Source: an uncultured Verrucomicrobiota bacterium (GTDB taxonomy: Bacteria > Verrucomicrobiota > Kiritimatiellia > PWTM01). Taken from it: DNA of 64,000 nt. Both the position numbers and the translations under genes were made by a program. The first letter of the stretch is position 1. Every line of letters starts with the position of its first letter. The stretch spans positions 2,125 to 66,124 of the forward strand of contig CAYODK010000006.1 in NCBI GenBank assembly GCA_964402695.1, read 5' to 3'. The notes below the pieces were generated by a model. It saw nothing but the letters and a program-made list of their open reading frames with translations. It was not told the DNA's origin and did no database searches. Of this stretch, positions 13,664 to 63,815 are shown one piece after another.

Positions 13664-13813
13664 GGGCGAGAAGCTCGAGGAACGGACGGGCTATTCAACA
13701 GACGCAGGGGGCCGCCTTTGAGTCGCTGGGGAGGACGGACAACTGCGATGAGCCGTGCGACCAAGCGGGCTGACGTGAAGCGTGAACGGCGAGTGCGGGA
13801 GGACTGACCAGTC

Positions 13814-44326: not shown

Positions 44327-44412
44327 CACGCAGGTCGGCGGCGAGAGGACGGCGCGGGGCGAAGCAACCGGACGGGAGGAGGTCGGAAAGAGGACGACTC
44401 GGGGGCTCCTGG

Positions 44413-44441
44413 TTGACGCAGGGCAGGCGGCTCGCTATCGT
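44413..44441 (+). promoter_or_regulatory. Candidate sigma70-like promoter (TTGACG-17 nt-TATCGT)
   Basis: Hexamers with 17-nt spacing about 30 nt upstream of the 44471 start, at a divergent intergenic region. Confidence 0.3.
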
Positions 44442-44470
44442 CAGCTTGGTATCTTGCGGAGGCTCCAGCC

Positions 44471-45127: not shown

Positions 45128-45164
45128 AGCCGCGGCGCGCCCGGCACGGACCGGGGCGTCGGAC

Positions 45165-45902: not shown

Positions 45903-45914
45903 GGAAGGACTACG

Positions 45915-47384
45915 ATGCCGGACATGAGAAAGAGGATGCTCGCCGCCGCGCTCGCGATCGCCGCGGCGCTGCCCGCCGGGGCGCAGGCCGCGGACGACTT
46001 CTACAAGGCGCGGCTCCAGGAAGGGCGGATCGCCTACGAGACGGGGAACGCGGCGGAGGCCGCGGACCTCCTCCGGATAGGCTGCTTCGGCCTGATGGAC
46101 CACCCCGCGCTTCTCTCGGAGGGGCTCGCGTGGCTCGCGCTCGCGCAGGTGAAGGCGGGGCGCGCGGCCGACGTGGACGGGACGGTGCGGCGCTTCCTCG
46201 AGGTTGAGAAGCGGTTCGGGGTGTGGGCGAAGGCGGCCGTGTCGGACGGCGCGCGGAAGGAGTTCGAGGCGCTCCTCGCGCGGCGGCTGCCGCCCGAGGC
46301 GCTCGCCTCGGTGCCGGCGCTCGCGGGGCTCGTGGAGACCGACGAGCAGAAGATCGCGAAGCTCGCGCCGCGGGAGCGGCGGCGGGCGCTCGAGGCGAAG
46401 GCGGCCGCGGAGCCGGCCGAGAAGAAGTGGGTGCTCGCCCTCGCGCGGCTCGCGGCCGAGGCGGGGGAGCCGAAGGAGACGATCCGCCAGGCCGGGAAGG
46501 CGATCGAGCTCGACCCGCAGGACCTCGAGGCGCGGCGCCTCAGGGCCGCGGCGCTCATGGCGCGGAAGAGCTGGGCCGAGGCGCTCGCCGACCTCGACGC
46601 GCTGCCGCCCGCGCTCCTCGCGTCGCAGCCCGCGCTCAGGGCCGACCGGTTCGTCTGCCTCGCGGCGGGGAAGCAGTGGGACCTCGCGCGCGAAGCGGCG
46701 GCGGGGCTGCCGGAGGACCAGCTCGCGCGGGCGGACGTCGCCGCGGCGATGAGGAAGGTGCCGGCGGCGCCGCAGGCGCCCGCGGCGGAGGAGGCAGCGG
46801 GCGCGACGGGAGCGCAGGGGGCGCCCGCGGCGGCGCCTGCGGTGGCGGAAGGGGCCCGGGCCGCGACGGTCGAGAGCGTTCCGGCCGCGCGGGCCGAGGC
46901 CGCTGCGGCACCGCCCGCGACGCCGCCGGCGGCCCCTCCGGGAAGCCGGACGGCAGCTGTGCCGGGCGCGGCGGCGCCGGCGGCGGGCGCCGGGGGCCCG
47001 GGGGCTCCGCAGGCGGCGGCCTCGATCGACGCGCTCAAGGTCCAGATTCGCGACGCGCTGAAGGCGGGGGCTCCCGACAAGGCGAAGGGGATCGCGATGG
47101 GAGCCGTCGCGGCGCGCCCGGACGACCGGGAGGCCCGCAAGCTCCTCCTCGAGGCGGCCTGCATGTCGCGCGACTGGAAGACGGTGGCCGCGCAGGCGCG
47201 GCTCCTCGCGCCGTTCCGCGACGGCGAGGAGCCGTCGATGTTCTACGGCGCCGTCGGGCTCTACGAGACGGGGGCCGTCGAGGAGGCCCGGCCGCTCATG
47301 CAGCGGGCGCGTCCCCGCGTCGCGCAGACGCCGTTCGTGAACTACTACGCCGATCGTCTGCTCCGCGACGGGACGCCGCAGTGA
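45915..47384 (+). CDS. Secreted TPR-like repeat protein
   Basis: Signal peptide, Ala-rich helical repeats, a low-complexity AP-rich middle. Confidence 0.45.
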   Translation: MPDMRKRMLAAALAIAAALPAGAQAADDFYKARLQEGRIAYETGNAAEAADLLRIGCFGLMDHPALLSEGLAWLALAQVKAGRAADVDGTVRRFLEVEKRFGVWAKAAVSDGARKEFEALLARRLPPEALASVPALAGLVETDEQKIAKLAPRERRRALEAKAAAEPAEKKWVLALARLAAEAGEPKETIRQAGKAIELDPQDLEARRLRAAALMARKSWAEALADLDALPPALLASQPALRADRFVCLAAGKQWDLAREAAAGLPEDQLARADVAAAMRKVPAAPQAPAAEEAAGATGAQGAPAAAPAVAEGARAATVESVPAARAEAAAAPPATPPAAPPGSRTAAVPGAAAPAAGAGGPGAPQAAASIDALKVQIRDALKAGAPDKAKGIAMGAVAARPDDREARKLLLEAACMSRDWKTVAAQARLLAPFRDGEEPSMFYGAVGLYETGAVEEARPLMQRARPRVAQTPFVNYYADRLLRDGTPQ

Positions 47385-47516
47385 CGGTCGCGGGCTCGCC
47401 GGCAGCAGCGTCTGCCGCGGCGGTCGCAGCGGCGGCAACGCGCGGAACTGTCGGTTCGGAAACGTTGACCGGGCGCTGTCGCGCCGACTAAAGTCCGGGA
47501 AAAGGGAGGAATCCGT

Positions 47517-48464
47517 ATGCAGTCCTGGAGGCGGTTCGGATCCCGGTGGCCGGTGCGCCGGGGCGCCGGCGCCCTGGTCGTGGCGGCTCTCCTCGTCGCG
47601 CTCGCCCCGGGGTGCGTGACGACGAACGAGGTCGCGAAGTCGTACCCGAACGACGAGCGGTACACGAAGCTCCTCGACGACGTCGCGAAGATCTACGAGA
47701 CGCGGGACACCTCGAAGATCATGGACCTCTACGTCCAGGACACGTACTCCCTCTCGTTCGACCAGACGACGGCGTTCGACTCCGGCGCGGCCGACCACAA
47801 GGGGACGATTGCGCGGCTCTTCGACGGCGTCGAGGACCTGAAGGTGGAGTGGAGCCCCGACGTGACCGTCGACAAGACTTCGGAGAAGGTCTGGACGACG
47901 CGCCACTTCAAGGCGACCGCGCTGATGGCGAACGGCGAGAAGCGCGAGATCTCGGGCTGGCACAGCGCCATCTGGGTGGAGCGCGACGGCAAGGACCTGA
48001 TCGAGTACGAGCACTTCCGCGCCGACACGCGGATCACCGCGATGCCGCCTCCGCCCCCGCCGCCGGCCGGGCCGCCGCCGCTGACGCCGGAGGCGATCGA
48101 GGCGCAGGCGCGCGACTCGATCCGCGACATCTTCTTCGACTACGACAAGTGGGACATCCGCGACTCCGAGCTCCCGAGCATCAACGTCGTCCTCGACTAC
48201 CTGAAGAAGTACCCGACGACGGAGATCACGATCGAGGGGCACTGCGACGAGCGCGGCTCGACCCGCTACAACATCCGCCTCGGCCAGAAGCGCGCCGACG
48301 AGACGAAGAAGTGGCTCGTCGCGCAGGGCATCGCGCCGGAGCGGCTCCGGACGATCTCCTTCGGCAAGAGCCGGCCGTTCGAGGTCGGGCGCTCGGAAGA
48401 CGCCTGGCAGTCGAACCGCCGCTCCCACTTCGTCGTCACCAAGGGCCCGACCTTCGACAAGTAG
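47517..48464 (+). CDS. OmpA-family lipoprotein with an N-terminal NTF2-like (SnoaL/DUF4440) domain
   Basis: Lipobox LAPGC, poly-Pro linker, C-terminal OmpA_C (GHCDERGSTRYNIRLGQKRA). Track start 47518 is inconsistent with its own length; the ATG is at 47517. Confidence 0.8.
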   Translation: MQSWRRFGSRWPVRRGAGALVVAALLVALAPGCVTTNEVAKSYPNDERYTKLLDDVAKIYETRDTSKIMDLYVQDTYSLSFDQTTAFDSGAADHKGTIARLFDGVEDLKVEWSPDVTVDKTSEKVWTTRHFKATALMANGEKREISGWHSAIWVERDGKDLIEYEHFRADTRITAMPPPPPPPAGPPPLTPEAIEAQARDSIRDIFFDYDKWDIRDSELPSINVVLDYLKKYPTTEITIEGHCDERGSTRYNIRLGQKRADETKKWLVAQGIAPERLRTISFGKSRPFEVGRSEDAWQSNRRSHFVVTKGPTFDK

Positions 48465-50282: not shown

Positions 50283-51661
50283 AGGTCGTCCACGACTCGC
50301 TGCCGTTCTCGGTCGGCGGGGTTGAGGTGTACGTCCAGCGCCTCTCCGAGGCGCTTGCGGACAGGGGAGTCGAAGTCGGCGTCTTCTCGGCGGTGGACTG
50401 TGCCGGAAGGCGTCCGTACGAGGCGGCGCTCGTCGAGGGGCGCGTGCCCGTGTACTCCGTGGCTCATCGTCTCGGCAGCCACGGGCAGGGCCTTGGGCAG
50501 GTCCTGCTCGACTCCAGCAGGTTCTACCTGGATCCCGCGGTCGACGCGGCATGCGCCGTGGTCGTGGAGACGTTTCGTCCGGATGTGATCCACATCCACC
50601 ACCTGGTGCATCTGTCGGGCTCTCTCATCGGGATGTTGAAGAGAATGGGGCTTCCGGTCGTCGTGACACTTCACGATTACTGGTACCTCTGCATCACGGG
50701 ACAGCTCCTGAATGACGGGGGCGCCCACTTCCCCGATCGGTGCGGAGCCCCCTGCATCGCATACGTCCTGCACAACCGCTACAAGGCTACGGGATGGCTC
50801 CGGTGGGGCCTTCGTCGCGCGATCGGCCTGGCACCGCTCGCCTTCGAGGGGCTTCACCGAAGACGCCGGGATCGCCTCCTGGCGGAGCTGAACTCGGCTG
50901 ACCGAGTCCTCGCCCCATCCCGGTTCATCGCCGAGGTGTACTGCGCGGCCGGACTCTCGGCTTCCCTGGTCTCCCATTCTCCCTACGGTGTTCCTTCCTC
51001 GTCGATCCCGAGGCGCGACGAGACCCGGACGGCAGGTGCGGGGCTTCGTGTGGGCTTCCTCGGGCGCATCGTCCCCGAGAAGGGACTTCACGTGCTTCTC
51101 GAGGCCTTCGACAGGCTCGACGACTCGTTCGAGCTGCACGTTCACGGGGTCGAATCGCGATCGTCGGGCTATGCCAGCCGCCTGTCGGGACGAATGAAGT
51201 CATCGAGGGTCCAGCGGCATGGACCCTACGATCACGAATGCGTCGGGGAGGTCTTGTCGGGCCTCGACGTCCTCGTGGTGCCCTCGGTGTGGTGGGAGAA
51301 CGCTCCCCTCGTGATTCTCGAGGCCTTCGCGGCGGGCGTCCCCGTCGTCGCTTCGAATCTGGGTGGGATGAGAGAGCTCGTCCGACATGGCGAGAACGGC
51401 CTCCTGTTCGAGGTGGGAGACTCCGACGCCCTCGCAGAGGCGCTTCTCCGGCTCAGGCACGAACCCGGGCTGCTCGCGTGCCTGCGGCGGGACCCGGTTC
51501 TGACGAGGAGCCTGGCCGAGAACGCTGACGAGCTGGAAGGGCTCTATTGCTCGCTCGTGGCGGAGCGGTCACCGGTCGAGGGCCGAGCCACGGGCGCCCC
51601 GAGGCTCGGGCTGCGAGAGAAGGGCACGAGATTCGGGCCGGCCGGCATCCGGCAGCCGTGA
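50279..51661 (+). CDS. GT-B glycosyltransferase (GT4), non-canonical start
   Basis: The conserved N-terminus (L)KVVHDSLPFSVGGVEVYV begins at a CTG overlapping the upstream TGA (CTGA). No in-frame ATG, GTG or TTG nearby. Confidence 0.6.
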   Translation: MKVVHDSLPFSVGGVEVYVQRLSEALADRGVEVGVFSAVDCAGRRPYEAALVEGRVPVYSVAHRLGSHGQGLGQVLLDSSRFYLDPAVDAACAVVVETFRPDVIHIHHLVHLSGSLIGMLKRMGLPVVVTLHDYWYLCITGQLLNDGGAHFPDRCGAPCIAYVLHNRYKATGWLRWGLRRAIGLAPLAFEGLHRRRRDRLLAELNSADRVLAPSRFIAEVYCAAGLSASLVSHSPYGVPSSSIPRRDETRTAGAGLRVGFLGRIVPEKGLHVLLEAFDRLDDSFELHVHGVESRSSGYASRLSGRMKSSRVQRHGPYDHECVGEVLSGLDVLVVPSVWWENAPLVILEAFAAGVPVVASNLGGMRELVRHGENGLLFEVGDSDALAEALLRLRHEPGLLACLRRDPVLTRSLAENADELEGLYCSLVAERSPVEGRATGAPRLGLREKGTRFGPAGIRQP

Positions 51662-53220
51662 GCTGCGAGCTGGGACAGGACTCGTCGGAGCTGGTCCGTG
51701 TATCGGGGTATCTCGGCGACGCGGGCGAGTCGTCGGCATCCGTCCTCGGCCCTCCCGTCGGCGAAGTCCATGCCCGCCAGGTCTTCGAGTGAGGGCGTGT
51801 GGTCCGGCAGGACTTCGATCATCTTCTCGAGGAGCGCCCGCTTCCGACCCTGGTCCATCGTCTCGGACGAGAGCGCGTGCCACGGAGCGGCGTACCGCGG
51901 ACGCAGCGCGAGGAGCGAATTCAGAACGCGGGTGGCGTCCTCGTGGCGGTCGCACCTGGCGTACGAATCGGCGAGCAGGAAAGCCGTCCACGCATCGCCT
52001 GGGTGAAGTGCCAGGACGCGCTCGTGGAACGCCGTACGGCCCTTCGGGTCCGCCGCGAGCTCGTTCCGGCGAGAAGCAGCTTCGTGGCGGAGGGCCAGCT
52101 CGTCGGCGTAGCCGGGGTCCGGCGAACGCGATCGTCCGCGCAGGAGCCCTGCCCGACCGAGGAACGCTACCGTGTCGCGGGCCGCGAGTTCGTGTGCAAA
52201 GGCGTTGGGGTGAAGGTCGGCCTCGGAGACGACGAGCACCGTGTTCTGTCCTTCGCGTTGGAGCGTCCCAGAGAGGTCAATCACCGGCAGGCGTAAGGAC
52301 TGAAGCGAGGCGACGAGCTGCCTGTAGGGCTTGTCGGCCTTGATGCCGAGTGCGCGCGTCTCAGCGCTCACGGGACCGTGCATGAGGTTGGGGAAGACGA
52401 CCGCTGCAAGGGGGACCCCTGCAGCCCGGCGAAACGATTCCATCTGCCGGAACGTCTCCTCCGCGACACGCCATTCGGCTGATCCGGGGCGATAGGCATT
52501 CTCGAAAGCCTCGAGAGCCGCGTCGATCCTCGAAGACTCGTCGGCGATTCTGGTGGCTGTCAGAGACCGGCCGAGACGGCCCGCGAGGGTGGGGGCCGCC
52601 TCGGCCCAGGCCTGGCCGACGCTCCACGGGTCCACGAGCGCGATGTCGTTCCAGAAGATCTGCCAGAGGACGAGGTCGGGCTTCAGGTCGGCTCCGTGGA
52701 CGAGAAGCTTGATGAGGTTGTCCGCGTGCCTGTGGCCGCAGACGCCGAGGTTGATGACCTCGGGTGTCAGGCCGTTCGGAAGCCGACCGTCGCCCAGAAG
52801 CGTCTCGAGACGGGAGGCCCACGTCTCCTCCATCGCCACGCCCTGGCCCCAGCTGAACGAATCGCCGACGACGACGATCCGGAAGGTCCCGGGCCTCCGC
52901 GAGATGGTGTACTCGGGGGTCCTGAAGCCGTTCGAGTTGTGAAGCGCACGCGCGTCGGGCTGCGAGCTGAACGGTATCGTCGTGGCCAGGAGGTCCGTCG
53001 GGGATGCCTCGAACGGGAAGTACCACGGCGTGGCCATGTACGCACTCGCGCCCGCGGGGCCGGTATCGGCCGACTCGGCAGGCCTCGGGAGGGAAGACAG
53101 TCGGGGCCTGTGGAAGGCCCGCAGGAACGCCTCGGCCGCGACCAGGGCAGCGACCGTCCCCAGCAGGATCGCCGCGAGCTTGAACACGGTTACCCGGCGT
53201 GGACGGGGGTAGCCGGTCAC
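51544..53220 (-). CDS. Membrane-anchored SGNH/GDSL hydrolase-fold protein with a C-terminal TPR-like domain
   Basis: IVVVGDSFSWGQG block I, N-terminal TM. Overlaps the 3' end of the convergent GT4 by about 118 bp. Confidence 0.55.
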   Translation of the reverse strand: MTGYPRPRRVTVFKLAAILLGTVAALVAAEAFLRAFHRPRLSSLPRPAESADTGPAGASAYMATPWYFPFEASPTDLLATTIPFSSQPDARALHNSNGFRTPEYTISRRPGTFRIVVVGDSFSWGQGVAMEETWASRLETLLGDGRLPNGLTPEVINLGVCGHRHADNLIKLLVHGADLKPDLVLWQIFWNDIALVDPWSVGQAWAEAAPTLAGRLGRSLTATRIADESSRIDAALEAFENAYRPGSAEWRVAEETFRQMESFRRAAGVPLAAVVFPNLMHGPVSAETRALGIKADKPYRQLVASLQSLRLPVIDLSGTLQREGQNTVLVVSEADLHPNAFAHELAARDTVAFLGRAGLLRGRSRSPDPGYADELALRHEAASRRNELAADPKGRTAFHERVLALHPGDAWTAFLLADSYARCDRHEDATRVLNSLLALRPRYAAPWHALSSETMDQGRKRALLEKMIEVLPDHTPSLEDLAGMDFADGRAEDGCRRLARVAEIPRYTDQLRRVLSQLAAHGCRMPAGPNLVPFSRSPSLGAPVARPSTGDRSATSEQ

Positions 53221-56200
53221 CGTCCGCTCCGGAGCCAGGCGGACCTAAGTCCGGCGAGGCGATGGACGCACCGCTTCAGGATGGGCGTTTCGAGAGCGTG
53301 GCGAATGGCGCGCTCGGAGGACGGAGCTGCCCTTCCGACTCGCGCCAGAAGGCGCTCTCCCAGGTAGGTTGCGGCCTCGAAGGACGGATGCCTCGGGAAG
53401 CGCCCGAGACCGCGCACCTCGACACACTCGACCGGGAAGAGGCTGACCCCGGCAACGGTTGCGGGCGGAGGTGCGAGAGGTCCTTGCCTCCGCCGGAAGA
53501 CGCCTCGGCGGGAGTCGTCGAGGACCTGCTGGAACAGCTTCACGTAAGCGTCGACCATGTTCTCGATCCGGAAGCTCCCGCTGAGAAGCCTCTCCTGTGC
53601 GCGCTGGGACATTCTGCTTCTCAGGTCGGCGTCGCCCGCGAGGCGCACGATCCGGTCGGCGAACTGGTCGATGTCCCCGACGGGAACGATGAAACCCTCC
53701 TCTCCGTCGCGGACGAGCTCGGGAATACCGCTCCGGATGGCCGAGACGACGGGTATGCAGCCCCGGCCCATGGCCTCCAGGAGGGCGTTCGGCAAACCCT
53801 CGAACGACGAGGTCATCAGGTACACGTCCTGGCTTTCGAGTACGCGGAGCGCATCTTCGTTCGACAGGACTCCGAGCATCCGAATGGCGCCGCGATCGGC
53901 GAGCTCTCGGGCAGCGCTGCGGAACGCGTCTTCGTCCGGCCCGGCTCCAATCACGGTCAGGACAGCGTCCACTCCCCGGTTCAGAACGGCGCGAACGATC
54001 TCCGGGAGGTCGAGGATGCGCTTCTGCCGGACGTTGAGGACGCCGTGATAGACGAGCCGGAGCTGTCCGCCCGCTTCGCGGGCGGGTTTCGGAGCTTCTC
54101 CGGGAAGGCAGATTCCGTACGGGATCGTGTGAAGACGCGCAGCGCACCCCGGGTCGATCCCCACGGCCTTCTCGGCGATCTCCTGACTCACGGCCACCAC
54201 CGCATCCCAGTACCTCCCTTGTCGGGCGAGGTGGTCGTAATGGAGGGGATCGTCCCCGTGGAGGATCCCCACTACCGAGACCCGTCGCGGCAATCGCGGG
54301 GCGACGCACGACTGCCGCCAGTCGTAGTTCGGAAGGTAGACGCACGGTGCGCTCTCCTCGAGGAGGCGCTGCATCGCGGCCCAGCGCTTCCCCCATCCGT
54401 CGGTCCGACCGACGGGCAGGTACCGGACAGGCAGATCCGGTGGAAGGGGCATGGGAGGGTCGGGAATCGAGATCAGGTCCGTCCGCTCCTCCGTGAGGAG
54501 GATCTCCGCCTCGGTCCCCTGTGCGCGAAGCCCTCGCACGAGATTCGCTGCGAAAACCGTCACCCCCGTGAGGGTCCAGTAGGGCAGCGCCACGACGACC
54601 CGAAAGTCACGGATCTCGGCGCGCCGGGCCGCCGTCACGGCGGCCTGCTGCACCTCCCGCGGCGTTGGGCTGCGCCGCATCTCGTCGAAGTCGATCCTGT
54701 CCCGGCGACTCGGGAAAGCGCCGAGCCCGGGGACGACGTGCGAGCACGGAATGGGGAAGATGCCGAGGCCGTCGATCTCCGGGGGGGGGGGAGAGATAGC
54801 TCCCGCAGCCCTGACGAAACGTCCCTCGCGAGCGTCTTCAGCGACCCGCTCGCACAGCTCGCCCCAGCGGCGGGACATCTCCTGGACGCTGTGCGGACCG
54901 CCGGCGACGATCTCGAAGGAGCGGCGGGCCATCCTCGACCGGAGGGCCGGATCGGAGGCGAGTTCCTGCAGCCGGCGCGCGAAATGGTCGAGGTCGCCGA
55001 TGGGTGCGGTGAAGCCGCTCTCACCGTCGCGAACGAGCTCCTGGAGCGCGCTTCGGGTCCGCGAGACGACGGGGACACAGCCCCGCCCCATCGCTTCGAG
55101 GAGAGCATTCGGCATTCCCTCGAACTCCGAGGTCATCAGGAAGGCGTCGTGCTCCTCGAGCATGCGCAGGACGCCTCGATTGGGGAGGACCCCCGCGAAC
55201 CGGACCCGTCCACGCTCCGCGTGGTGGTCCAGCAGGTCCCGCAGCTCGGGTTCCTGGCTTCCACCTCCCGCGAGGGTCAGCACGAACGGAACGCCAAGCG
55301 ACTCGAGACGGTCGAGAATCCCGACGAGGTCGAGGATCCGTTTCTGTCGCTGGTTCAGAAGGCCGTGGTAGACGATTCGGAGGGCGCCCCCGGGGTCCGT
55401 GGCGTGCTGCGGCAGGCTCTCCGGAACCTCGACGCCGATCGGGATCGTCAGGAGCCGAGGCCGGAAGGACGGGTCGATCGCCGCGGTCTGGTCCTCGACG
55501 GCACGGCTGACGGCGACGATGGCGTTCCAGCTTCGTCCGAGGCGTGCGACATGGTCGTAGTGCAGGGGGTCGTCGCTGTGGACGACGCCGGCGACGGCGA
55601 CACTCCCGCTGAGCAGGGGGGAGATGCAGGAGTGCCTCCAGTCCGCGTTCGGCACGTAAACGCAAGGCGAGCGCTCTTCCAGATAGCGAATCATGGCGCC
55701 CCAGTGCGCGCCCCAGCTCGCCTGGGGACTCACGGGAAGGTAGGAAACCGGGAGGTCGTCCGGGAGCGGGAGGCGTGGGTCCTCGACGCTCACGAGGTGC
55801 GTTCGCTCCTCCGTCAGCAGGAGCTCGGCGTCGAAGCCGATGCTCCGGAGGCCGCGGACGAGGTTCGCCGAGAAGATGTTGACTCCGTTCAGAGTCCAGT
55901 AGCTCGCAGCGACGACGACCCTTGGTCGCACGTTCTTCCTCCATGTCTCCCGAGTCAGATCGCTCGTCCGCGCTGGCCGGGAGTCCTTTCGCAATCCGAA
56001 ACGTCCCGCCCGGGTTCCGAGCGAGAGCGCATCCACGAAGAGCCTTGCGCATTCCGCAGCGCGGACTCGGATTTCGGAGTAGAAGAGAACGAGGTGGCCT
56101 GCCGCTACGAGGAGGTAGCTCGTGTCTCTCCAGGCGAGCGAGCCAAGGAGTACCAGCGACAGCCAGGCCTGGTAGAAGCCGGCCGGGAGCACGTAGGCCC

Positions 56201-57044
56201 CGTGCGAAGCCGGGGCCGGGTCTGGGCGCACGCCCCAGACTCTCCAGCGGACGGCGTCTACGCCCGCACTTACAGCAAGGGCTGCGAAAGGCGCGACACC
56301 TGGCGAACCCTGAGAGGCGAACCACGCGGCGAGGACGAGGGCTTCGGCCGGGAAGACGACGCGGTGGATGACTCGGCGAACTCGATCGGGCCGCTGTCCG
56401 GCAACGAAGGTCCGCACGCCGCCCGCCTTGTCCGCTTCCCGGTCCCAGAGCTGGTGGAGGAGGATGCCCCGGGTTCCAGTGAGGAAGGACCACGCGATTG
56501 CGAGTGCGGCCGGTACGCCGAGGCTGCCCTCGCCGAGAACCCACGACGCAGTCGCCGCCGGGAAGGTGTGGACGGCCAGCGAGTCCGCGAGTACCCCAAG
56601 GAGGGACCGTTCCTTCAGCCGGACGGGAGGGGCCGAATAGGCGCCCGCAAGGGCGAGATTCGCGATCACCAGCGCGACGCCCATGGACCCCGCGCCGGCC
56701 AGGAATACCGGCAGGACGCTCACCACCGCGAGGAACAGGAGGGCGCCGGCGACTGCTTCCCTGCGTACCGTCCGTATTCGGGTGGGCCGTCCGGCTCGCC
56801 GATCCGCATCCGAGTCGAAGAAGTCGTTCGCCAGATATCCGAAAGCGCCCAGCGCCGACGTCGAGATCAGGATCGCCAGAAGGCGGGGGCCCGAGGACGA
56901 AGACGGTGACCGGCAGACGAGCGCCTGCGCGTAGCCGACCGCGAGCGCCATCGGGACCTTCGACGAGAACCACTCGCCGGCCCGCACGCTCGCGACGACG
57001 GTCCGGACATCGAGAACGGCACGGCTGAGAGCACGTCGTTTCAC
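53217..57044 (-). CDS. Tri-domain fusion: UbiA-superfamily prenyltransferase-like membrane domain plus two tandem GT4 glycosyltransferase domains
   Basis: UbiA motifs NDFFDSDADRRAGRP and WDREADKAGGVRT in a roughly 330-aa TM domain. There are two roughly 400-aa GT-B repeats, each ending EGMPNALLEAMGRGC(V/I)PVVS. 1275 aa. Confidence 0.65.
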   Translation of the reverse strand: MKRRALSRAVLDVRTVVASVRAGEWFSSKVPMALAVGYAQALVCRSPSSSSGPRLLAILISTSALGAFGYLANDFFDSDADRRAGRPTRIRTVRREAVAGALLFLAVVSVLPVFLAGAGSMGVALVIANLALAGAYSAPPVRLKERSLLGVLADSLAVHTFPAATASWVLGEGSLGVPAALAIAWSFLTGTRGILLHQLWDREADKAGGVRTFVAGQRPDRVRRVIHRVVFPAEALVLAAWFASQGSPGVAPFAALAVSAGVDAVRWRVWGVRPDPAPASHGAYVLPAGFYQAWLSLVLLGSLAWRDTSYLLVAAGHLVLFYSEIRVRAAECARLFVDALSLGTRAGRFGLRKDSRPARTSDLTRETWRKNVRPRVVVAASYWTLNGVNIFSANLVRGLRSIGFDAELLLTEERTHLVSVEDPRLPLPDDLPVSYLPVSPQASWGAHWGAMIRYLEERSPCVYVPNADWRHSCISPLLSGSVAVAGVVHSDDPLHYDHVARLGRSWNAIVAVSRAVEDQTAAIDPSFRPRLLTIPIGVEVPESLPQHATDPGGALRIVYHGLLNQRQKRILDLVGILDRLESLGVPFVLTLAGGGSQEPELRDLLDHHAERGRVRFAGVLPNRGVLRMLEEHDAFLMTSEFEGMPNALLEAMGRGCVPVVSRTRSALQELVRDGESGFTAPIGDLDHFARRLQELASDPALRSRMARRSFEIVAGGPHSVQEMSRRWGELCERVAEDAREGRFVRAAGAISPPPPEIDGLGIFPIPCSHVVPGLGAFPSRRDRIDFDEMRRSPTPREVQQAAVTAARRAEIRDFRVVVALPYWTLTGVTVFAANLVRGLRAQGTEAEILLTEERTDLISIPDPPMPLPPDLPVRYLPVGRTDGWGKRWAAMQRLLEESAPCVYLPNYDWRQSCVAPRLPRRVSVVGILHGDDPLHYDHLARQGRYWDAVVAVSQEIAEKAVGIDPGCAARLHTIPYGICLPGEAPKPAREAGGQLRLVYHGVLNVRQKRILDLPEIVRAVLNRGVDAVLTVIGAGPDEDAFRSAARELADRGAIRMLGVLSNEDALRVLESQDVYLMTSSFEGLPNALLEAMGRGCIPVVSAIRSGIPELVRDGEEGFIVPVGDIDQFADRIVRLAGDADLRSRMSQRAQERLLSGSFRIENMVDAYVKLFQQVLDDSRRGVFRRRQGPLAPPPATVAGVSLFPVECVEVRGLGRFPRHPSFEAATYLGERLLARVGRAAPSSERAIRHALETPILKRCVHRLAGLRSAWLRSGR
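54781..54791. repeat. G11/C11 homopolymeric tract inside the UbiA-GT4-GT4 coding sequence
   Basis: 11 consecutive G on the + strand, encoding PPPP at the linker between the GT4 repeats. Confidence 0.9.
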
Positions 57045-58378
57045 GAAGGCGGGCCCGAACTGCTCCTTCGCCGAAAGCCGAGCCGCCCGAAGTACCGCCG
57101 CGCGTGTCCCGACAGGAGCGATCGGACCGGCGGGAGGTGGTCGAGCCAGGGAGGAGGAAGCCCGAGCGGGGAGCGGACGGTCCCGGGCGGCCGCCGGAAG
57201 GAACCCGTCGAAAGGTCGTGCCAGACCTGATCGAATAGCGCCGTGTAGGCGTCGACCATTCCATCGAGGTTGAATCTGTCGGCGACGGTGCGGTGAGCCG
57301 CCGCGCCCATCGCGGCTCGTCGAACCGGGTCGGACTGCAGGACTTCGAGCCGGGCAGCGAAGGTTCTCACGTCACCAACACGGACTCGGAAGCCGTTCTC
57401 GCCGTCGGCGACGAGCTCCGGGATGCCGCTTCTGATGTCGGAAACGACCGGCACGCAACCTCGGCTCATCGCCTCCAGGAGCGCGAGGGGCAGCCCTTCG
57501 AACTCGGACGCGAGGACGAAGGCGTCGGCCCGTTCGAGCTCGAGGAGGATGTCGTCGTTGGAGAGCGTGCCCAGGAGACTGGCCTGGCCACGACCGACGA
57601 GGTCTCCGAGGGCCCGTTCGAGATTCGTCCGATCCGCTCCGTTCCCCGCGATTCGCAGCTCGAAGGGGACGCCCTGGAGCGCCAGATGTCGAGCGATGGC
57701 GGCGACGTCGAGGACACGCTTCTGGTGCTGGACGATCCGGCCCGCGTAGACGATTCTGAGGGGGGCACCCGGGCGGGAGACGCGCTCGGGGAAGGCCTCC
57801 GGGCATGGAATCCCGTACGGGATCGTTCGCATCCGAGGGACCAGGCGGGGCGTCTGTTTCGCGATTGCCGCGGACACGGCGTCGCTGACCGCGACGATGC
57901 CGTTCCAGGAGGCGCCGAGTCTCGCAACGTGTTCGTAGTGGTCCGGGTCGTCGCTGTGGGCTATGCCGACGACGGCGACGGAATCCGGGAGGACCGGGCT
58001 GACCCCGGAATACGCGTAATCGTAGTTGGGGATGTAGACGCACGGCGAGAGCTCGGCAAGGTAGCGCCCGAGAGTGCTCCACCGCTCGTTCCATCGATGG
58101 TGAAGACGGACCGGGAGTCGATCGAAGCGGAGATCGGCAGGGAGGGGAATGGGGTTCGTCCGGCGTGTCGACGGCCTCGTGAACAACAGGCGGGCATCGA
58201 AACCGCGCGATCCCAGCGCACGCGCCATGTGGAACGAGAACGTGTCTACACCGCTCAGCTCCCCGGAAGTCAACCCGATCACGACCCGGTATTCCGGGCC
58301 GTCCTTACGGGCAGAGCCATTTCGCGGTTGGGCCGGTTCCGCGAATCGACGGTTCATGACGTCTGTCCCCATTATCAT
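57041..58378 (-). CDS. GT-B glycosyltransferase (GT4), third paralog of the tandem repeats in the upstream fusion
   Basis: Same subfamily signatures (EFEGLPLALLEAMSRGCVPVVSDIRSGIPELV). ATGA-coupled to the fusion gene. Confidence 0.8.
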   Translation of the reverse strand: MIMGTDVMNRRFAEPAQPRNGSARKDGPEYRVVIGLTSGELSGVDTFSFHMARALGSRGFDARLLFTRPSTRRTNPIPLPADLRFDRLPVRLHHRWNERWSTLGRYLAELSPCVYIPNYDYAYSGVSPVLPDSVAVVGIAHSDDPDHYEHVARLGASWNGIVAVSDAVSAAIAKQTPRLVPRMRTIPYGIPCPEAFPERVSRPGAPLRIVYAGRIVQHQKRVLDVAAIARHLALQGVPFELRIAGNGADRTNLERALGDLVGRGQASLLGTLSNDDILLELERADAFVLASEFEGLPLALLEAMSRGCVPVVSDIRSGIPELVADGENGFRVRVGDVRTFAARLEVLQSDPVRRAAMGAAAHRTVADRFNLDGMVDAYTALFDQVWHDLSTGSFRRPPGTVRSPLGLPPPWLDHLPPVRSLLSGHARRYFGRLGFRRRSSSGPPS

Positions 58379-58390
58379 ATCGCCTGCCGA

Positions 58391-61300
58391 ATGAAACGAG
58401 CGCTCTTGTTCGTGTTGACGCTTCTCTGCGGGGCGAACGTCGCAGGAGCACCGGCAGGCACCGTTCCGTCGGCGGAGTTTCTTCGCGAGTTGCAGAAACG
58501 ATCCTTCGCGACGTGGACCTCCAGGTCAGAGCAGGAAATCCTCGAACTGTACGACCCGGGCGCGGATGTCGTCCTCTACGGCCCGCAGCTTGCTCGTTTC
58601 GTCGGTGCGCAGGGGCACGTCTCCTTCCTGCTGAGCCTGGTGCGGGACTGGCAGTTCTGCGAGTTCGTCCCGACCGGAGAGCCTTTCGTCGTCGCGGGGC
58701 GCGATCTGGCCTCGACGGCCACAACCTGGAGGTTGGAAGGGGTCACGAGGGATGGGCGTCCGGTCACATACGAAGGACGATGGACGAATGTCTGGGTTCG
58801 GAAAGGCGGCCGCTGGCTGATCGCGCACGAGCACGTCTCTTTCACCAGCTTTCCTGCGGTAGCCTCCTCTGCCATTCAGGGGACTCCCGTGCCCCGCCTT
58901 CCCGGTCTCCCCGAGCCGTCCCGCCTTCCCCTCCTCGAGCAGGAAGGATCTCCGTCGTCGACGGGCCGGCTCTCGAGCGCGCCTCTGATCGGCCTGGTCC
59001 TTTCGGTAGTGGCGATACTGCTCTGCGGATGGGCCGTCATGGCCGTTCGGAAGCAGGCGCGTGGCTCGCTGCTCGGCATGGCTGCTGCGCGGTCCCGTGG
59101 GAGGCTCGTCGGGCTCCTCTTGCGGATTGGACTACGGGTCGAATCGGTGGACGGCCTCGGGCGGACGCCCCTGATGATGGCCGCGAAAGCCGGGAAGGTC
59201 GACATCTGCCAGAGACTGCTCGCAGCGGGCGCGAGGGTGGATGCGCAGGACGAGTACGGAGCGACAGCCTTGCACCATGCGGCGGTCGGCGGAGACCTCG
59301 CAACGGTCGCGCTACTCCTCGAGAGCGGGGCAGACCCCCTGACCGAGACGCCCATGGGAAGGACCGCTGCCGACATCGCGGCTCTTCTCCATCAGGAGCG
59401 CATCTCAGATCTGCTTGCGTCGGCCACAGCGGCGGCAGGAGGCTCTCAGCCCCGTCCGGCCCTGGATCGCCCGCGCAGTCCCGGGCCTCAGCGAATCCGC
59501 GGCGCCTCTTGTCCGCGCTGCTCGGAGTCGCACAGGCTCGTGCTGTCCAGAAGCTACCGTCGCTGGGAAGTCCTCGTTCGGCGCGTCCTGCCCCTCGAGT
59601 TCGTACGCTGTCCCTCCTGCCTGTGGAGAGGCGCCCTCTCGAAGCGGTCGTTCTCTCTCGAGAGCCCTCCGCCAGGGGGTGTCGAGAGCGTACCTTCGAG
59701 CGACGTCGCCCCCTCCGATCGGCCGGAGCCGATGCCGGCGCCGGCGCCGCGGCCTGCAGAGGGTGGCAAGCTCCATCCACGGATCGACGGGGTCTCTTGC
59801 CCGAAGTGCGGCGCCGCGGGTGGGCTCGTTCTCTCGAGAAGCAGACGTTCGTGGGAAAACGCCGTGCGCAGCCTCCTCCCCTTGCAGTTCGTTCGGTGCC
59901 ACCGCTGCCGCTGGCGTGGCCCTGTTCACATGCATCGTCGCGGCGTGTCAGCCCCCGCGAGCCTCGGCGAGTCCGCCACTCCGGGTGGCTCGCGGCCAGA
60001 ACGAACGTCGTGGCCGGGCAGCCTCATCGTCGTCCTCGTCGCGCTCGCCCTGGTGGACCTCTTTCTCCTGGTGCGCCTGTTCCCGCCCTTGACGACGGAC
60101 GAGGTCTACTTCAAGGGAACGGCGTATCACCTGGCGACCACCGGGCGATGGGCGAACCCGTTTGTGGGACTGGCCGGGAACGGACCGGGTGATGGGCTCG
60201 TCCCGTATCCGCCCCTGTTCATGGTCGCTCTTGCCGGATGGTTCAAATTGTTCGGCCTGGGAGGCTATCAGAACCATGCGTTCGTCCTCCTGCTTCACTG
60301 GATGACCGCTCTTCTCGCTGGCGTCCTGACGCTCCGGCTCGTGGAGACGCGTCGAGGTCTCTGGGCTTCGATGGCCGCGATCGGAGCCTTCTGCTATTAC
60401 CGGCTGGATCGGACCGACGTCCTCGCCGGCGTCCTCGTCCTTGCCAGCGTCCTCCTCCTGCTAGAGTCGCTCGATGGCTCGGCCGGGCACGGCTCGCGGG
60501 CACGGCCCGTGCTCCTGCTCGGGCTCCTCGCGACGTTTCTGGTCGGCCCCGCGGCGACGCTTCTCTATGGCGCGGTCCTGTCCGTCTTCGTGATCCGCAG
60601 CGGGCTAGCTTGGGTGAGCGTTCGATCGCTGCTGCTGCAGCTCGCCTCGTGTGCCCTCCTCGCTGTCGCGAGCTCGTGGGCGCTTTCTGCGGAGACATTC
60701 AGCACGCTCGCCCGGCAGATCCTTGGTGCCGTCGCCACGGGACTTCGTCATCCGTTCCGTCTGACCGGAGCCTTCTCCTGGTCGGACGCCGTGTTCGTGC
60801 CGTGGTTCGTCGCGCTCGGGATCGCGCTCCTCCTTTCCCGCAGAACGCCTGCGGGAGCAGACCGCTCCAGACGAGCCGTCGCTCTCGCCGAAGCGACGAT
60901 CTTCGGTGTGCTCGTCTGGCTCTTGTTGACCCCCAAGGCCGGCACCTATTTGCACCTGCTCTTACCCCTGGCGGTCGTCGCGGTCGTGGCGATCACAGCG
61001 GGGCTGTTCCCCCGGGCCAGGCTGGCGCCGGTGGCGATCGCTCTGGGATGCCTGCTGCCCGGCCTCCTGCTCGCACTGCTCACCCTTGCACGCGCGACGA
61101 CGATCGATGACAGGGAGCGCTACTCGAGTGCGGCGAAGGCGGTGGAGAAGTACGTGCCAGCGGGGGAGCTCGTTGCCGGCGACGGGTGCCTCTGGACGGT
61201 CTTCGCTGGACGAAACCCCTTCGTCGACGCGGGCTGGGCGCCTCACGCGGCAAGGGACGCCCGGTGGATCGTCTCGACGGGAATCGGGACGGGCCGGGCG

Positions 61301-61507
61301 GGCCTGAGCGTCGTCGAGGCGCGCCCGGGAGTTCTTCGTGGCGGGGAGGAGGTCGTTTTCGACGGGATACTCAGGGAGCCGCAGCGCATTTCCGGCATCC
61401 CTCTCGGCCGCAGCCGGCTCGGATACGGAATTCGGATCTACCGTTCGCCGGCGGCACCGGACCTGCAGCGCGGCTCGGCCGCTCGAGCCGAAGGAACCGT
61501 GCGATGA
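58391..61507 (+). CDS. Multi-domain membrane protein: NTF2-like (DUF4440) exported domain, TM, ankyrin repeats, two CxxC...CxxC zinc-ribbon-like repeats, C-terminal GT-C-like (ArnT/PMT-type) polytopic glycosyltransferase domain
   Basis: Signal peptide MKRALLFVLTLLCGANVAGA. ANK motifs GRTPLMMAAKAGKVDICQRLLAAGA and GATALHHAAVGGDLATVALLL. Duplicated CPRCSESHRLVLSRSYRRWE...CPSCLWRG and CPKCGAAGGLVLSRSRRSWE...CHRCRWRG. About 11 C-terminal TM helices with YFKGTAYHLATTGRWANPF. A single uninterrupted 1038-aa frame. Confidence 0.6.
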   Translation: MKRALLFVLTLLCGANVAGAPAGTVPSAEFLRELQKRSFATWTSRSEQEILELYDPGADVVLYGPQLARFVGAQGHVSFLLSLVRDWQFCEFVPTGEPFVVAGRDLASTATTWRLEGVTRDGRPVTYEGRWTNVWVRKGGRWLIAHEHVSFTSFPAVASSAIQGTPVPRLPGLPEPSRLPLLEQEGSPSSTGRLSSAPLIGLVLSVVAILLCGWAVMAVRKQARGSLLGMAAARSRGRLVGLLLRIGLRVESVDGLGRTPLMMAAKAGKVDICQRLLAAGARVDAQDEYGATALHHAAVGGDLATVALLLESGADPLTETPMGRTAADIAALLHQERISDLLASATAAAGGSQPRPALDRPRSPGPQRIRGASCPRCSESHRLVLSRSYRRWEVLVRRVLPLEFVRCPSCLWRGALSKRSFSLESPPPGGVESVPSSDVAPSDRPEPMPAPAPRPAEGGKLHPRIDGVSCPKCGAAGGLVLSRSRRSWENAVRSLLPLQFVRCHRCRWRGPVHMHRRGVSAPASLGESATPGGSRPERTSWPGSLIVVLVALALVDLFLLVRLFPPLTTDEVYFKGTAYHLATTGRWANPFVGLAGNGPGDGLVPYPPLFMVALAGWFKLFGLGGYQNHAFVLLLHWMTALLAGVLTLRLVETRRGLWASMAAIGAFCYYRLDRTDVLAGVLVLASVLLLLESLDGSAGHGSRARPVLLLGLLATFLVGPAATLLYGAVLSVFVIRSGLAWVSVRSLLLQLASCALLAVASSWALSAETFSTLARQILGAVATGLRHPFRLTGAFSWSDAVFVPWFVALGIALLLSRRTPAGADRSRRAVALAEATIFGVLVWLLLTPKAGTYLHLLLPLAVVAVVAITAGLFPRARLAPVAIALGCLLPGLLLALLTLARATTIDDRERYSSAAKAVEKYVPAGELVAGDGCLWTVFAGRNPFVDAGWAPHAARDARWIVSTGIGTGRAGLSVVEARPGVLRGGEEVVFDGILREPQRISGIPLGRSRLGYGIRIYRSPAAPDLQRGSAARAEGTVR

Positions 61508-62613
61508 GCGTCGCGCTCGCCGAGCTCGAGGAGAAGGCGGAGGGCCTCGTCTCTTACCTGGAGTCGAGGCTTCGGAAACAGGGTCGGTTCCGCACGCTTC
61601 GTCGGTTCCTCGGCGACGTGGGGAGCTACGCGAGGCCCACTGAGTACGACGGCTGGTACGAGTTCGGGGACTGCCCGTTTGCGGCGGCGAGCATCGCCAT
61701 CCACTTGCCCTTCCTCGGGGACGAGCGCCTCGCCGAACTCGGTCGACAGGTCTGCGAATACCTCGTCCCGGCGCTCGAAAATGGGATCGCGCGGTACGCG
61801 ATGCGGAGAGACGGGCCGATTCCATTCCCGGCAGACGTTGAGGACACGTGCCTCGTCGGCGCCGCGCTTCGGGCCAATGGCTTTCCGGTCGCCTTGAACG
61901 TGAACATGATCGCGGCCAACGTCGATTCGCGCGGACGCTTCTACACCTGGCTTGTGCCCCGGCTGCGCCATTTGCGCCATCCTCGCAACTTCCTCTGGCT
62001 CTGCCGGGACCAGAGGCGTTGCCGAGCGCTCATGAAGTCATACGGGACTTCGCGCGGCCGTCTCTCACAGATGGCGAACGAGTATCGAATCAGCCGCGAG
62101 CCGGCGGTCGCTGCGAATGTGCTTCTCTGTCCCGAGGTTCGCGGACGGTGTCCGGCGGCCGTCACGGCTCTGGTGGAGCAGGTCCTCGATGGAGACATGC
62201 CGCAGCAGTACTACGGAAGTCGGCTTGCTGCCTGGTTTCACCTGGCGCGGCTGTCTGCGGCTCGCGTCGAGCCGATCGGTGCCATCAAGGCCATCGCTGC
62301 GAAGGAGCTTGCGTTGGCCCAGAGGGAGGATGGCTCCTGGGGTACTCCGTTTCAAACGGCCATGGGTTTGCTGGCCTCGATGTACCTCGGTATCGGGAGC
62401 GCTGAGTCGCGCGAGCGAGGGGTCCGGAATCTCCTGAGACTCGAATGGCACGAGAAGGGCTGGGTCCCCTTTCCGTACTACAACGACCTCTACGACGTCT
62501 TCGAGGACGGAAGTGCCGAGCTCACAGCCGTTCTGGTCCTGGAAGCTCTCCTGCGCTGGCGATCGTCCCGTGGGGAACGAGGAGACCCCGTCGCGACCTT
62601 CACCGCTCTATAG
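61504..62613 (+). CDS. Hypothetical protein, possibly alpha/alpha-toroid (prenyltransferase/terpene-cyclase-like, QxxDGSW motif)
   Basis: ATGA-coupled to the upstream gene. QREDGSWGTPF resembles QW motifs. Weak. Confidence 0.35.
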   Translation: MSVALAELEEKAEGLVSYLESRLRKQGRFRTLRRFLGDVGSYARPTEYDGWYEFGDCPFAAASIAIHLPFLGDERLAELGRQVCEYLVPALENGIARYAMRRDGPIPFPADVEDTCLVGAALRANGFPVALNVNMIAANVDSRGRFYTWLVPRLRHLRHPRNFLWLCRDQRRCRALMKSYGTSRGRLSQMANEYRISREPAVAANVLLCPEVRGRCPAAVTALVEQVLDGDMPQQYYGSRLAAWFHLARLSAARVEPIGAIKAIAAKELALAQREDGSWGTPFQTAMGLLASMYLGIGSAESRERGVRNLLRLEWHEKGWVPFPYYNDLYDVFEDGSAELTAVLVLEALLRWRSSRGERGDPVATFTAL

Positions 62614-62789
62614 CGGTCCCGCTTGCGGCCGCGATCTCGCTCCGAGGGACACGGAGGCGACCGAGGCCACTGGAACGTCGGAGGCGGGAGCCGCCTGGCC
62701 GGCCTCTCCGGTGCTCCCGCCGAGCCAACCGACGGCGGGGGGCGAGGCACCGGCCCTGCTCGAGCGCACGGGATACGCGAAAAGAGGGC

Positions 62790-63815
62790 TCATCGAGGTG
62801 GGCCGAAGGAGGCGAGGTCGATGGTCACGTTCCGTTGCCCTTCGAAGAGGAGGGGACAGGACGAGCAGACCCCGCTGCCAGAGGCGAGCGCCCGCCGCAG
62901 GGCCTCAAATGGTTCCGAGCCCCATATTTCGTCGAGTCGTTGTCGTGAGAGGTCGCCCAGCTTCTCGGACGCTCGCCGCGGGTTGACCAGAGTGAACCAG
63001 CACGGGTAGACGCTTCCATCGATAGCGACATTCACCTGGTCCGTCGGAAAGCGACAGGGCCGGAACTCGTACTCTCTCGGGCCGGTGAACTGGACTTCTA
63101 TTCCCAGTCTTGCGGCCTCTTTCGTCGCAGCCGCGAGCACGGCGCGGAACGCGGGGCTCTCCAGGTCCACGCGCGGCCCATCGTAGTCGCTCAGGTAGTA
63201 GGTGCTCATGAAGTACACCCGGTACATCCCCAGCTTCGCGGCGAAGGCGACCGCTCCCGGCATGTCCGCGACGGTGTCGGACGTCACCACCCAGGCCACG
63301 CTGCAGGCAGGACGGGCCGAGGACCGAAGGCGCTTGACTTCGTTCAACTGTGCGATGCTCCCGAGCACCCTCCCGAAAGCGTCGCTCTGCCTGACTCGCC
63401 GGTAGCTCTCCGCGTCGAGGGTCTCGATCGAGACGATGACCTCGTCGACGCCGATCTCTACGAGCGTCGCGATGTCCGCGGGCGTCGGCAGAGAGAAGTT
63501 CGTGAAGAAGCTCATGTGCAGATCGGGATGCGTCTTCCGGGCATGCGAGAGAATCGCGGTGAACTCCGGGTTCGTGAAGGGCTCGCCCAGCCCGAAGAAG
63601 ACCAGCCCGGGAAGGAAGCCGCCTCCGAAACCCAGGTTCCCGAGGATTCTTTGGAAGACCTCGAGGGACATCGCGGTCCCCACCTGCTGAGGCAACTTCT
63701 GCCGAATGCAGTGAATGCACCGGAAGTTGCAGCGGGTAGTGATCTCCACATAGCAGACGGAAGGAAGCCCGGGCGCCGGGGTTTCGGAAGGAGGCGTTCG
63801 ATGCCCTTCACTCAT
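62790..63815 (-). CDS. Radical SAM enzyme with a C-terminal SPASM/twitch-like Cys cluster
   Basis: CNFRCIHC (CxxxCxxC) near the N-terminus, GLGEP, C-terminal CxxxxxxCxxC. 341 aa. Confidence 0.8.
   Translation of the reverse strand: MSEGHRTPPSETPAPGLPSVCYVEITTRCNFRCIHCIRQKLPQQVGTAMSLEVFQRILGNLGFGGGFLPGLVFFGLGEPFTNPEFTAILSHARKTHPDLHMSFFTNFSLPTPADIATLVEIGVDEVIVSIETLDAESYRRVRQSDAFGRVLGSIAQLNEVKRLRSSARPACSVAWVVTSDTVADMPGAVAFAAKLGMYRVYFMSTYYLSDYDGPRVDLESPAFRAVLAAATKEAARLGIEVQFTGPREYEFRPCRFPTDQVNVAIDGSVYPCWFTLVNPRRASEKLGDLSRQRLDEIWGSEPFEALRRALASGSGVCSSCPLLFEGQRNVTIDLASFGPPR

Follow-up and report, generated by a model that had tools for sequence, protein, structure and literature searches.

This study analyzed a stretch of 64,000 nucleotides (hereafter, the window) from contig CAYODK010000006.1 (assembly GCA_964402695.1) of an uncultured Verrucomicrobiota bacterium. 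We focused on a group of seven genes, A to G, at its 3' end that encode a UbiA-type prenyltransferase fused to GT4 glycosyltransferase modules, a further GT4 protein, an SGNH/GDSL protein, a terpene-cyclase-like protein, a large membrane protein and a radical SAM enzyme (Table 1). An earlier note on this DNA had described these genes as a possible self-contained lipid-linked glycosylation module. All evidence presented here is computational. The window has a G+C content of approximately 68%, so most of its long open reading frames (ORFs) are spurious, and the gene models were derived from third-position GC (GC3) and frame analysis together with the ORF list.

The reverse-strand genes C, B and A are joined by start-stop overlaps reading GTGA, in which the stop codon of C lies over the start of B (57041-57044) and the stop codon of B over the start of A (53217-53220). 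Overlaps reading ATGA connect D with E at 61504 and G with F at 63812. The earlier note had listed ATGA overlaps at 57041, 61504 and 63812, of which the latter two are as described and the first is GTGA. The G/F overlap couples F to G in an operon that is convergent with E, and F is thus uncoupled from the glycosylation genes. The annotated start codons of the divergent genes C and D are 12 bp apart (58378-58391); each promoter would therefore be located within the coding sequence of the other gene, unless C starts downstream at Met8. At the other end of the group, A (51544-53220, reverse strand) and a convergent GT4 gene (50327-51661, forward strand) share 118 bp of sequence at the 3' end of each gene.

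Table 1. Genes, domains and motifs of the gene group and the ABC-2 exporter genes of the window (aa, amino acids).
Feature	Position	Strand	Length	Description
Gene A	51544-53220	-	558 aa	SGNH/GDSL + TPR (Pfam)
Gene B	53217-57044	-	1275 aa	UbiA (aa 1-345) fused to two GT4 modules (Pfam)
UbiA-type prenyltransferase domain of B	56010..57044	-		Pfam, Asp-rich motifs
UbiA Asp-rich motif 1 of B	56802-56828	-		NDFFDSDAD
UbiA Asp-rich motif 2 of B	56409-56444	-		DREADKAGGVRT, contains DREAD
GT4 module 1 of B	54675..55922	-		HSDDPLHYDH 55551-55580; EX7E 55095-55121 (B aa 642-650)
GT4 module 2 of B	53355..54602	-		HGDDPLHYDH 54231-54260; EX7E 53775-53801 (B aa 1082-1090)
Gene C	57041-58378	-	445 aa	Single GT4 (Pfam)
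Gene D	58391-61507	+	1038 aa	Multi-transmembrane (multi-TM) protein; product identical to public gene call
Gene E	61504-62613	+	369 aa	Predicted monodomain class II terpene-cyclase-like alpha/alpha barrel
DxDD-type motif of E	61834-61851	+		DVEDTC
QW-like motif of E	62320-62340	+		QREDGSW, aa 273-279
Gene F	62790-63815	-	341 aa	Radical_SAM + SPASM (Pfam)
Gene G	63812 to beyond 64000	-		Partial gene
Wzm	17809-18639	+		Pfam ABC2_membrane
Wzt	18644-19972	+		Pfam ABC_tran

The N-terminal domain of B matched PF01040 (UbiA) over aa 41-270 with 62.5 bits, against a gathering cut-off of 34.2. Residues N73, D74, D77 and D81 (NDxxDxxxD) and D201 and D205 (DxxxD) of its two Asp-rich motifs were invariant in 19 aligned relatives with approximately 30% identity, as were Y136, S137, P140 and K144 of the YSxxPxxxK region. 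The invariance of catalytic residues at this level of identity indicates that the domain has been selected as a catalyst and not as an anchor alone, and we considered a role as a mere membrane anchor unlikely on the same ground. A profile of the domain matched chlorophyll synthase (9e-9), digeranylgeranylglyceryl-phosphate (DGGGP) synthase (2e-7) and the Archaeoglobus UbiA homologue AfUbiA (1e-5) in the Protein Data Bank (PDB), and no chain named phosphoribosyltransferase appeared among its PDB matches at E<=10. Judged by this profile, the domain resembles enzymes that use prenyl diphosphates and not phosphoribosyl-donor synthases. The complete UbiA-GT4-GT4 architecture of B was found in about 20 homologous clusters (36-50% identity, approximately 95% coverage), with one homologue in Massilia sp. 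DWR3-1-1. Many tandem-GT4 relatives of B lack the UbiA domain, and a B-type UbiA domain is fused to a cytochrome P450 in the protein P0072.

Besides UbiA, Pfam identified two Glycos_transf_1 matches and one Glyco_transf_4 match in B. The EX7E motif is kept in all three GT4 modules, the copy in C being located at aa 294-302, and a distinctive HSDDPLHYDH-type motif is common to both modules of B and to C. Gene C encodes a member of the same GT4 subfamily as the modules of B, and its product is 42-50% identical to GT4 modules of related loci. Modules of this subfamily end in a conserved tail, F-R-R-P-x-G-x-L-x-P-P-P-x-V-x-G-x-x-x-F-P-V...G-x-G-x-F-P-S, which is present at aa 743-780 and 1183-1220 of B and also in homologues. 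The product of gene A comprises, in order, an N-terminal TM helix, an SGNH/GDSL domain (GDS at aa 119, 52858-52866) and TPR. The UbiA-like domain, the three GT4 domains and the SGNH esterase that the earlier note had placed in this cluster were therefore all borne out by Pfam, the first two also by their catalytic motifs.

Gene E showed no Pfam or NCBIfam match, even at E<=10. An AlphaFold (AF2) model built on a five-sequence alignment (pLDDT 74.5, pTM 0.80) was compared with the PDB by using Foldseek. All matches at E<=1e-5 were class II cyclases, with E-values of 4.5e-8 to 1e-5, a probability of 1.0 and query-normalised TM scores of 0.50-0.66. These included the 345-aa Cystobacter fuscus cyclase 8pak (E 4.5e-8), the class II domain of drimenol synthase, the monodomain meroterpenoid cyclase MstE, ent-copalyl diphosphate synthase (5bp8) and squalene-hopene cyclase (SHC). 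An exhaustive profile search placed E in a family of 997 representative clusters, 520 of them at E<=1e-10. In the best 154 of the 997 clusters, from which the motif counts were taken, the consensus P-P-D-x-D-D-T-[A/C/S] hardly varies, with D111 occurring in 151 of 151, D114 in 138, and either D (147) or E (3) at position 113. HMMER aligned this motif with PDVDDTA of SHC (residues 373-386), which is the general-acid DxDD motif of that enzyme. The QxxDGSW motif that the earlier note had seen in an alpha-toroid protein is indeed present, as QREDGSW. On the basis of the modeled fold, E is predicted to be a class II terpene-cyclase-type protein. A glycoside hydrolase, a lyase or a LanC-like toroid was considered and rejected; the glycosidases among the Foldseek matches all had E>1e-3, and the DxDDTA motif is consistent with a cyclase.

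Members of the E family are fused to UbiA domains in both orders, the architectures being UbiA-E-TPR, UbiA-E-PhyH-TPR, UbiA-E-PhyH-coiled-coil and E-UbiA. The fusions P0096, P0106, P0110, P0119 and P0129 scored 232-326 bits on the UbiA profile of B, whereas the best solved UbiA enzyme scored 38 bits; the UbiA domains of the fusions therefore belong to the same subfamily as that of B. In P0164 a GT4 domain is fused directly to E. Other fusion partners of E were P450 (five), Acyl_transf_1 (three), PhyH dioxygenase, B12-binding radical SAM, methyltransferase and SGNH domains, which are typical terpenoid tailoring enzymes. Together with the UbiA-GT4-GT4 proteins, the E fusions connect prenyl transfer, cyclization, oxidative tailoring and glycosylation in a single pathway, and the fusions between UbiA and E point to prenyl-chain chemistry and not sugar-donor synthesis. 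The earlier note had regarded the alpha-toroid gene as an accessory. The predicted cyclase type of E and its repeated fusion to the UbiA subfamily of B speak against this view, and E appears to be a core partner of the cassette. The three Acyl_transf_1 fusions are P0124, P0197 and P0208, and in a Hymenobacter locus (L012) an Acyl_transf_1-P450 fusion (6148-8427) lies between wzm and wzt; these fusions hint at acylation of the product.

Homologues of B, E and the fusion proteins led to related loci, which were scored by tblastn, all-against-all clustering and HMMs. These loci amounted to 15 distinct ones and one further locus without DNA, from Massilia, a Melioribacteraceae metagenome-assembled genome, Gemmatimonadaceae, Hymenobacter, Allosphingosinicella, Chloroflexota and metagenomes, representing at least six phyla. 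A B-type UbiA, fused or stand-alone, was present in 12 of the 15 loci and E in 11, and the two occurred together in 8. Wzm and/or Wzt genes, which encode an ABC-2 exporter, were located beside B-type UbiA or E in 11 loci, and at least five loci contained SGNH genes, with SGNH homologues adjoining B or E homologues in L002, L003, L004, L006 and L014. The gene order was Wzm-Wzt-UbiA-E, contiguously, in L015; Wzt-UbiA-E, also contiguously and with Wzm approximately 6 kb upstream in the same operon, in L006; B-Wzm-Wzt-E in Massilia; Wzm-Wzt-B in L002; and B-E in L004. Comparable orders were found in Gemmatimonadaceae, Hymenobacter, Allosphingosinicella and metagenomic loci, and in several phyla the genes of Wzt-UbiA-E or B-E overlap or abut. 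The recurring cassette consists of a Wzm/Wzt exporter, a B-type UbiA, E, the distinctive GT4 subfamily and SGNH. The co-conservation that the earlier note had expected of its gene cluster therefore holds for UbiA, the GT4 domains, the alpha-toroid and SGNH, and it fails for D and F; neither F nor the N- or C-terminal half of D had a homologue in any of the 15 loci (tblastn, E<=0.01).

Several further genes accompany the cassette. L002, the locus of the closest B homologue, lacks E and contains instead an 876-aa SQHop_cyclase-FAD monooxygenase-type fusion (12033-14663), which is possibly an epoxidase-cyclase replacement for E, and L003 contains an amine-oxidase/desaturase-type flavoprotein. Sulfotransferases, B12 radical SAM enzymes, methyltransferases and AMP-ligase/thioesterase pairs recurred among the related loci. 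The cassettes of L006 (Melioribacteraceae) and L015 (metagenomic) carry several sulfotransferases along with B12-binding radical SAM enzymes, including a fused one, which suggests products that are sulfated and C-methylated.

Gene D encodes, in order, a signal peptide, a DUF4440 (NTF2-like) domain, a TM helix, ankyrin repeats, two CxxC...CxxC repeats, approximately 10 TM helices and a 139-aa tail. The two CxxC...CxxC repeats (aa 374-506, 59510-59908) are duplicated segments of approximately 48 aa that follow the ankyrin repeats on the cytoplasmic side; they are zinc-ribbon-like and have weak Pfam zinc-ribbon matches. The earlier note had proposed D as a GT-C-like transferase. The topology is GT-C-like, with a TM helix, a 66-aa loop that is predicted to be periplasmic and carries TTDEVYF, and then the group of approximately 10 TM helices. 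The membrane domain (aa 541-1038) revealed no Pfam match at E<=10 and no PDB sequence match by phmmer. NCBIfam and two metagenome scans matched the ankyrin repeats only, and BLASTP against the other window proteins and a PMT_2 fragment revealed no match. A word-indexed protein search returned no homologue of D and not even D itself, and a single-sequence AlphaFold model was unusable (pLDDT 40.8). D is thus an orphan with a topology alone in common with GT-C enzymes, and both its membership of the cassette and its GT-C identity are putative. Gene F carries the CxxxCxxC motif as CNFRCIHC at aa 29-36, matches PF04055 and PF13186, and scores far below the cut-offs of all NCBIfam equivalogs. Its description in the earlier note as a radical SAM/SPASM enzyme stands. 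The accessory role given to it does not, in view of the lack of homologues in the related loci and the convergent operon; other radical SAM types recur in related cassettes, unlike F.

On these sequence comparisons, genes C, B, A and E may well be a copy of a widespread cassette that couples terpenoid chemistry to ABC-transporter-dependent glycan assembly, a reading that we hold with middling confidence. In its best-supported form, the UbiA domain and the class II cyclase-type enzyme would make or remodel a terpenoid lipid moiety, which would then be glycosylated and exported. The UbiA domain of B would ionize a prenyl diphosphate by means of its two Asp-rich motifs and transfer the prenyl chain to an acceptor. 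The two UbiA-fused GT4 modules and their paralogue C would add sugars at the cytoplasmic face, with nucleotide sugars as donors, the SGNH-TPR protein A would add or remove ester substituents, and a Wzm/Wzt-type ABC-2 transporter would export the lipid-linked glycan. By analogy with the related loci, the Wzm/Wzt pair at 17.8-20.0 kb of the window is a candidate and probably the export partner here. We infer the substrate, the product, the order of prenylation and cyclization, and a terpenoid that serves as an anchor or aglycone and not as a cap. The location of the UbiA active site in the membrane and the fusion of this domain to glycosyltransferase modules favor a role at the lipid (reducing) end, where the terpenoid would act as a primer, anchor or aglycone. 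ABC-2 exporters generally handle lipid-anchored glycans, such as O antigens, teichoic acids, group 2 capsules and Nod factors.

Several observations weigh against this interpretation. The Wzm/Wzt pair, the only ABC-2 glycan exporter in the window, is approximately 35 kb from the cassette. The model of E is of moderate confidence, and residues 93-110, just before the acid motif, have pLDDT <50. The E of this genome (DVEDTC) is one of only 3 among the 154 relatives with Glu at the central acid position, and it may be less active. E was not found within 10 kb of the B homologues in L013 and L014, and the related loci contained no polyprenyl synthase gene. Moreover, Wzt_C modules and the sugar-nucleotide genes of the Massilia locus suggest a long O-antigen-like polymer. 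The usual carrier of such polymers is, to our knowledge, undecaprenyl diphosphate, and we know of no role for terpenoids in their synthesis. A wider form of the interpretation is more tentative, and we regard it as possible but doubtful. It holds that many bacteria, among them Proteobacteria, Bacteroidota, Ignavibacteriota, Gemmatimonadota and Chloroflexota, build an unrecognized class of surface glycoconjugate with a prenylated, cyclized terpenoid as its lipid anchor or carrier. This terpenoid, made by a dedicated pair of UbiA and monodomain class II cyclase, would take the place of the universal linear undecaprenyl carrier or remodel it, with UbiA-fused GT4 polymerases elongating the glycan and Wzm/Wzt exporting it.

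The main rival is that the terpenoid is a cap or side group on an undecaprenyl-linked polymer, which we consider rather unlikely. The tandem GT4 protein would be a WbdA-type polymerase, and the polymer an ordinary O-antigen-like chain on undecaprenyl diphosphate. UbiA and E would modify its non-reducing end or a side chain with a prenyl or cyclic-terpenoid group, which would control chain length or be read by the carbohydrate-binding module of Wzt. Such modules (Wzt_C) were found in L001, L013, L018, L019 and the P0076 locus, and faintly in L015. The UbiA-E fusions end in TPR or a coiled coil (P0096, P0106 and P0119; Rod_CreS in P0110), and a coiled-coil ruler is a mark of known chain terminators (PMC11231755). 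Sulfotransferase-TPR and methyltransferase genes in the loci point in the same direction, as do the GDP-mannose dehydratase/epimerase-type genes of Massilia, which are typical of polymer synthesis. Nevertheless, UbiA active sites are located in the membrane, whereas the growing end of a glycan moves away from it; a prenylated glycan terminus is not known; and the direct UbiA-GT fusion fits priming better than termination. A far less probable alternative is coincidence, with UbiA and E making a separate membrane terpenoid and the clustering reflecting a shared envelope-biogenesis island. The window is indeed a 60-kb island that mixes Wza/Wzc/Wzy-type, ABC-type and cellulose-synthase-like GT2 systems. 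The covalent fusions, UbiA-GT4-GT4 in about 20 clusters and GT4-E in P0164, already disfavor this explanation, as do the overlapping or abutting cassette genes in several phyla.

The model of the earlier note, in which UbiA makes a polyprenyl-phosphate-linked sugar donor as in DPPRS/PPPRS pentofuranose synthesis, the GT4 enzymes elaborate it and D acts as a GT-C enzyme transferring it outside the cytoplasm, is quite unlikely on present evidence. Three-component systems with UbiA and GT-C enzymes exist (PMC11127046). D has an Asp-Glu pair in the loop after its TM helix in addition to its GT-C-like topology and is translationally coupled to E, and L015 has a PMT_2 gene approximately 8 kb upstream of its cassette. 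However, the window genes scanned with Pfam included no phosphoribose phosphatase, epimerase or MATE/SMR/GtrA flippase, and the UbiA profile matches prenyl-diphosphate enzymes, so the donor-synthase role that the note gave to UbiA found no support. Moreover, known GT-C donors are single sugars and not chains elongated by GT4 enzymes. This model is disfavored because its defining partners are absent, because D is unverified and not conserved, and because the UbiA-cyclase fusions are left unexplained. The likeness to decaprenyl-phosphate-arabinose logic on which the note had drawn extends to a UbiA-superfamily enzyme in a surface-glycan locus; the partners are absent, the UbiA subfamily appears to differ and D has no detectable sequence similarity to GT-C enzymes. 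Nor does the module appear self-contained, since related cassettes almost always carry Wzm/Wzt and the only such pair here is distant.

Among known systems, MstE resembles E in being a single alpha/alpha barrel of approximately 350 aa with an acidic motif at a similar position (D109 in MstE; D111-E113-D114 in E), and the two proteins are linked by the Foldseek match. The MstE pathway also has a UbiA-type prenyltransferase partner. By contrast, a profile of E and four relatives matched neither MstE nor 8pak in the PDB at E<=10, so that the likeness is structural; the E family has the canonical DxDDTA where MstE has DxD; and the partners of E are glycosyltransferases and a Wzm/Wzt exporter and not a natural-product cluster. 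A survey found monodomain MstE-like cyclases in many phyla and did not describe a glycan-export context (PMC12414744). SHC and the bacterial drimenyl and copalyl diphosphate synthases share with E the fold, a PDVDDT(A/C) motif aligned to residues 373-386 of SHC and a QW-like motif, whereas E is a single-domain protein of 369 aa that falls below Pfam and NCBIfam thresholds and stands in a glycan-export context.

On the glycan side, WbdA of Escherichia coli O9a and Klebsiella O3, which acts with WbdD and Wzm/Wzt, resembles B in combining tandem GT4 modules in one polypeptide. The WbdA systems and the related loci also have in common wzm/wzt, often with a C-terminal binding module in Wzt, extra GT4 "adaptor-like" genes and modifying enzymes (PMC11231755). 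They differ in that B has an N-terminal catalytic UbiA domain and a putative polymerizing activity, and the cassette has a terpene-cyclase-type gene at its core; in the window, we identified no terminator of the coiled-coil type. Pentofuranose systems and mycobacterial arabinan donor pathways, which combine PPPRS/DPPRS with a flippase and GT-C enzymes (GT136, Emb/Aft, TfpW), likewise place a UbiA-superfamily enzyme in a surface-glycan locus (PMC11127046). They differ from the window in having the phosphatase, epimerase and flippase that it lacks, and the putative GT-C enzyme proposed here is not conserved. The UbiA subfamily of B also appears to be distinct from theirs, and it is fused to Leloir GT4 modules and elsewhere to terpene-cyclase domains. 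In Xanthomonas lipopolysaccharide cassettes, UbiA is of the pentofuranose-donor type and is accompanied by FAD/SDR oxidoreductases and GtrA, an arrangement different from that observed here.

ABC-transporter-dependent glycan assembly is thought to use linear polyprenyl carriers and methyl, phosphate or sugar caps, and terpene cyclases are regarded as enzymes of hopanoid, sterol-like lipid and natural-product synthesis. Our literature searches revealed no paper that links terpene cyclases with Wzm/Wzt and none that describes UbiA-GT4 fusions. The cassette suggests an unrecognized type of terpenoid-linked surface sugar molecule. If this is true, the cassette would define a novel type of glycolipid or of glycan modification in the envelope, would give a function to a large "hypothetical protein" family (approximately 1000 clusters) without a Pfam model, and would supply biocatalysis with new membrane-bound pairs of terpene cyclase and prenyltransferase.

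Outside the gene group, the window is a polysaccharide island with a PNPT-type initiating transferase, many GT2 and GT4 enzymes, carbamoyltransferases and MBOAT/AT3 acyltransferases, and it also holds Wza, Wzc and Wzy_C genes and a cellulose-synthase-like GT2. Two parts of it differ in base composition. From 40000 to 48000 the G+C content rises markedly, to 0.73-0.77, and Ala-rich proteins without a Pfam match (41125-42843, 44471-45127 and 45915-47384) are encoded among Wzc, Wzy_C, CpsB and OmpA genes. The region 10778-13663 has a lower GC3 and contains two methyltransferase-like ORFs (10778-11542 and 11703-12620, the latter with an FkbM-like motif) and a GT2 ORF (12617-13663), all of which GC3-based gene finding missed. 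A carbamoyltransferase at 4206-5917 on the forward strand appears to be split over three consecutive ORFs, the first of which (4206-5231) encodes the N-terminal domain and the other two (5174-5515 and 5516-5917) the C-terminal halves; it is possibly a pseudogene or the result of sequencing frameshifts, and an intact paralogue is located at 32839-34599. The island also contains two genes for PIN-domain toxins, at 307-693 on the forward strand and at 37094-37746 on the reverse strand, the second of which is accompanied by a MazE-type antitoxin.

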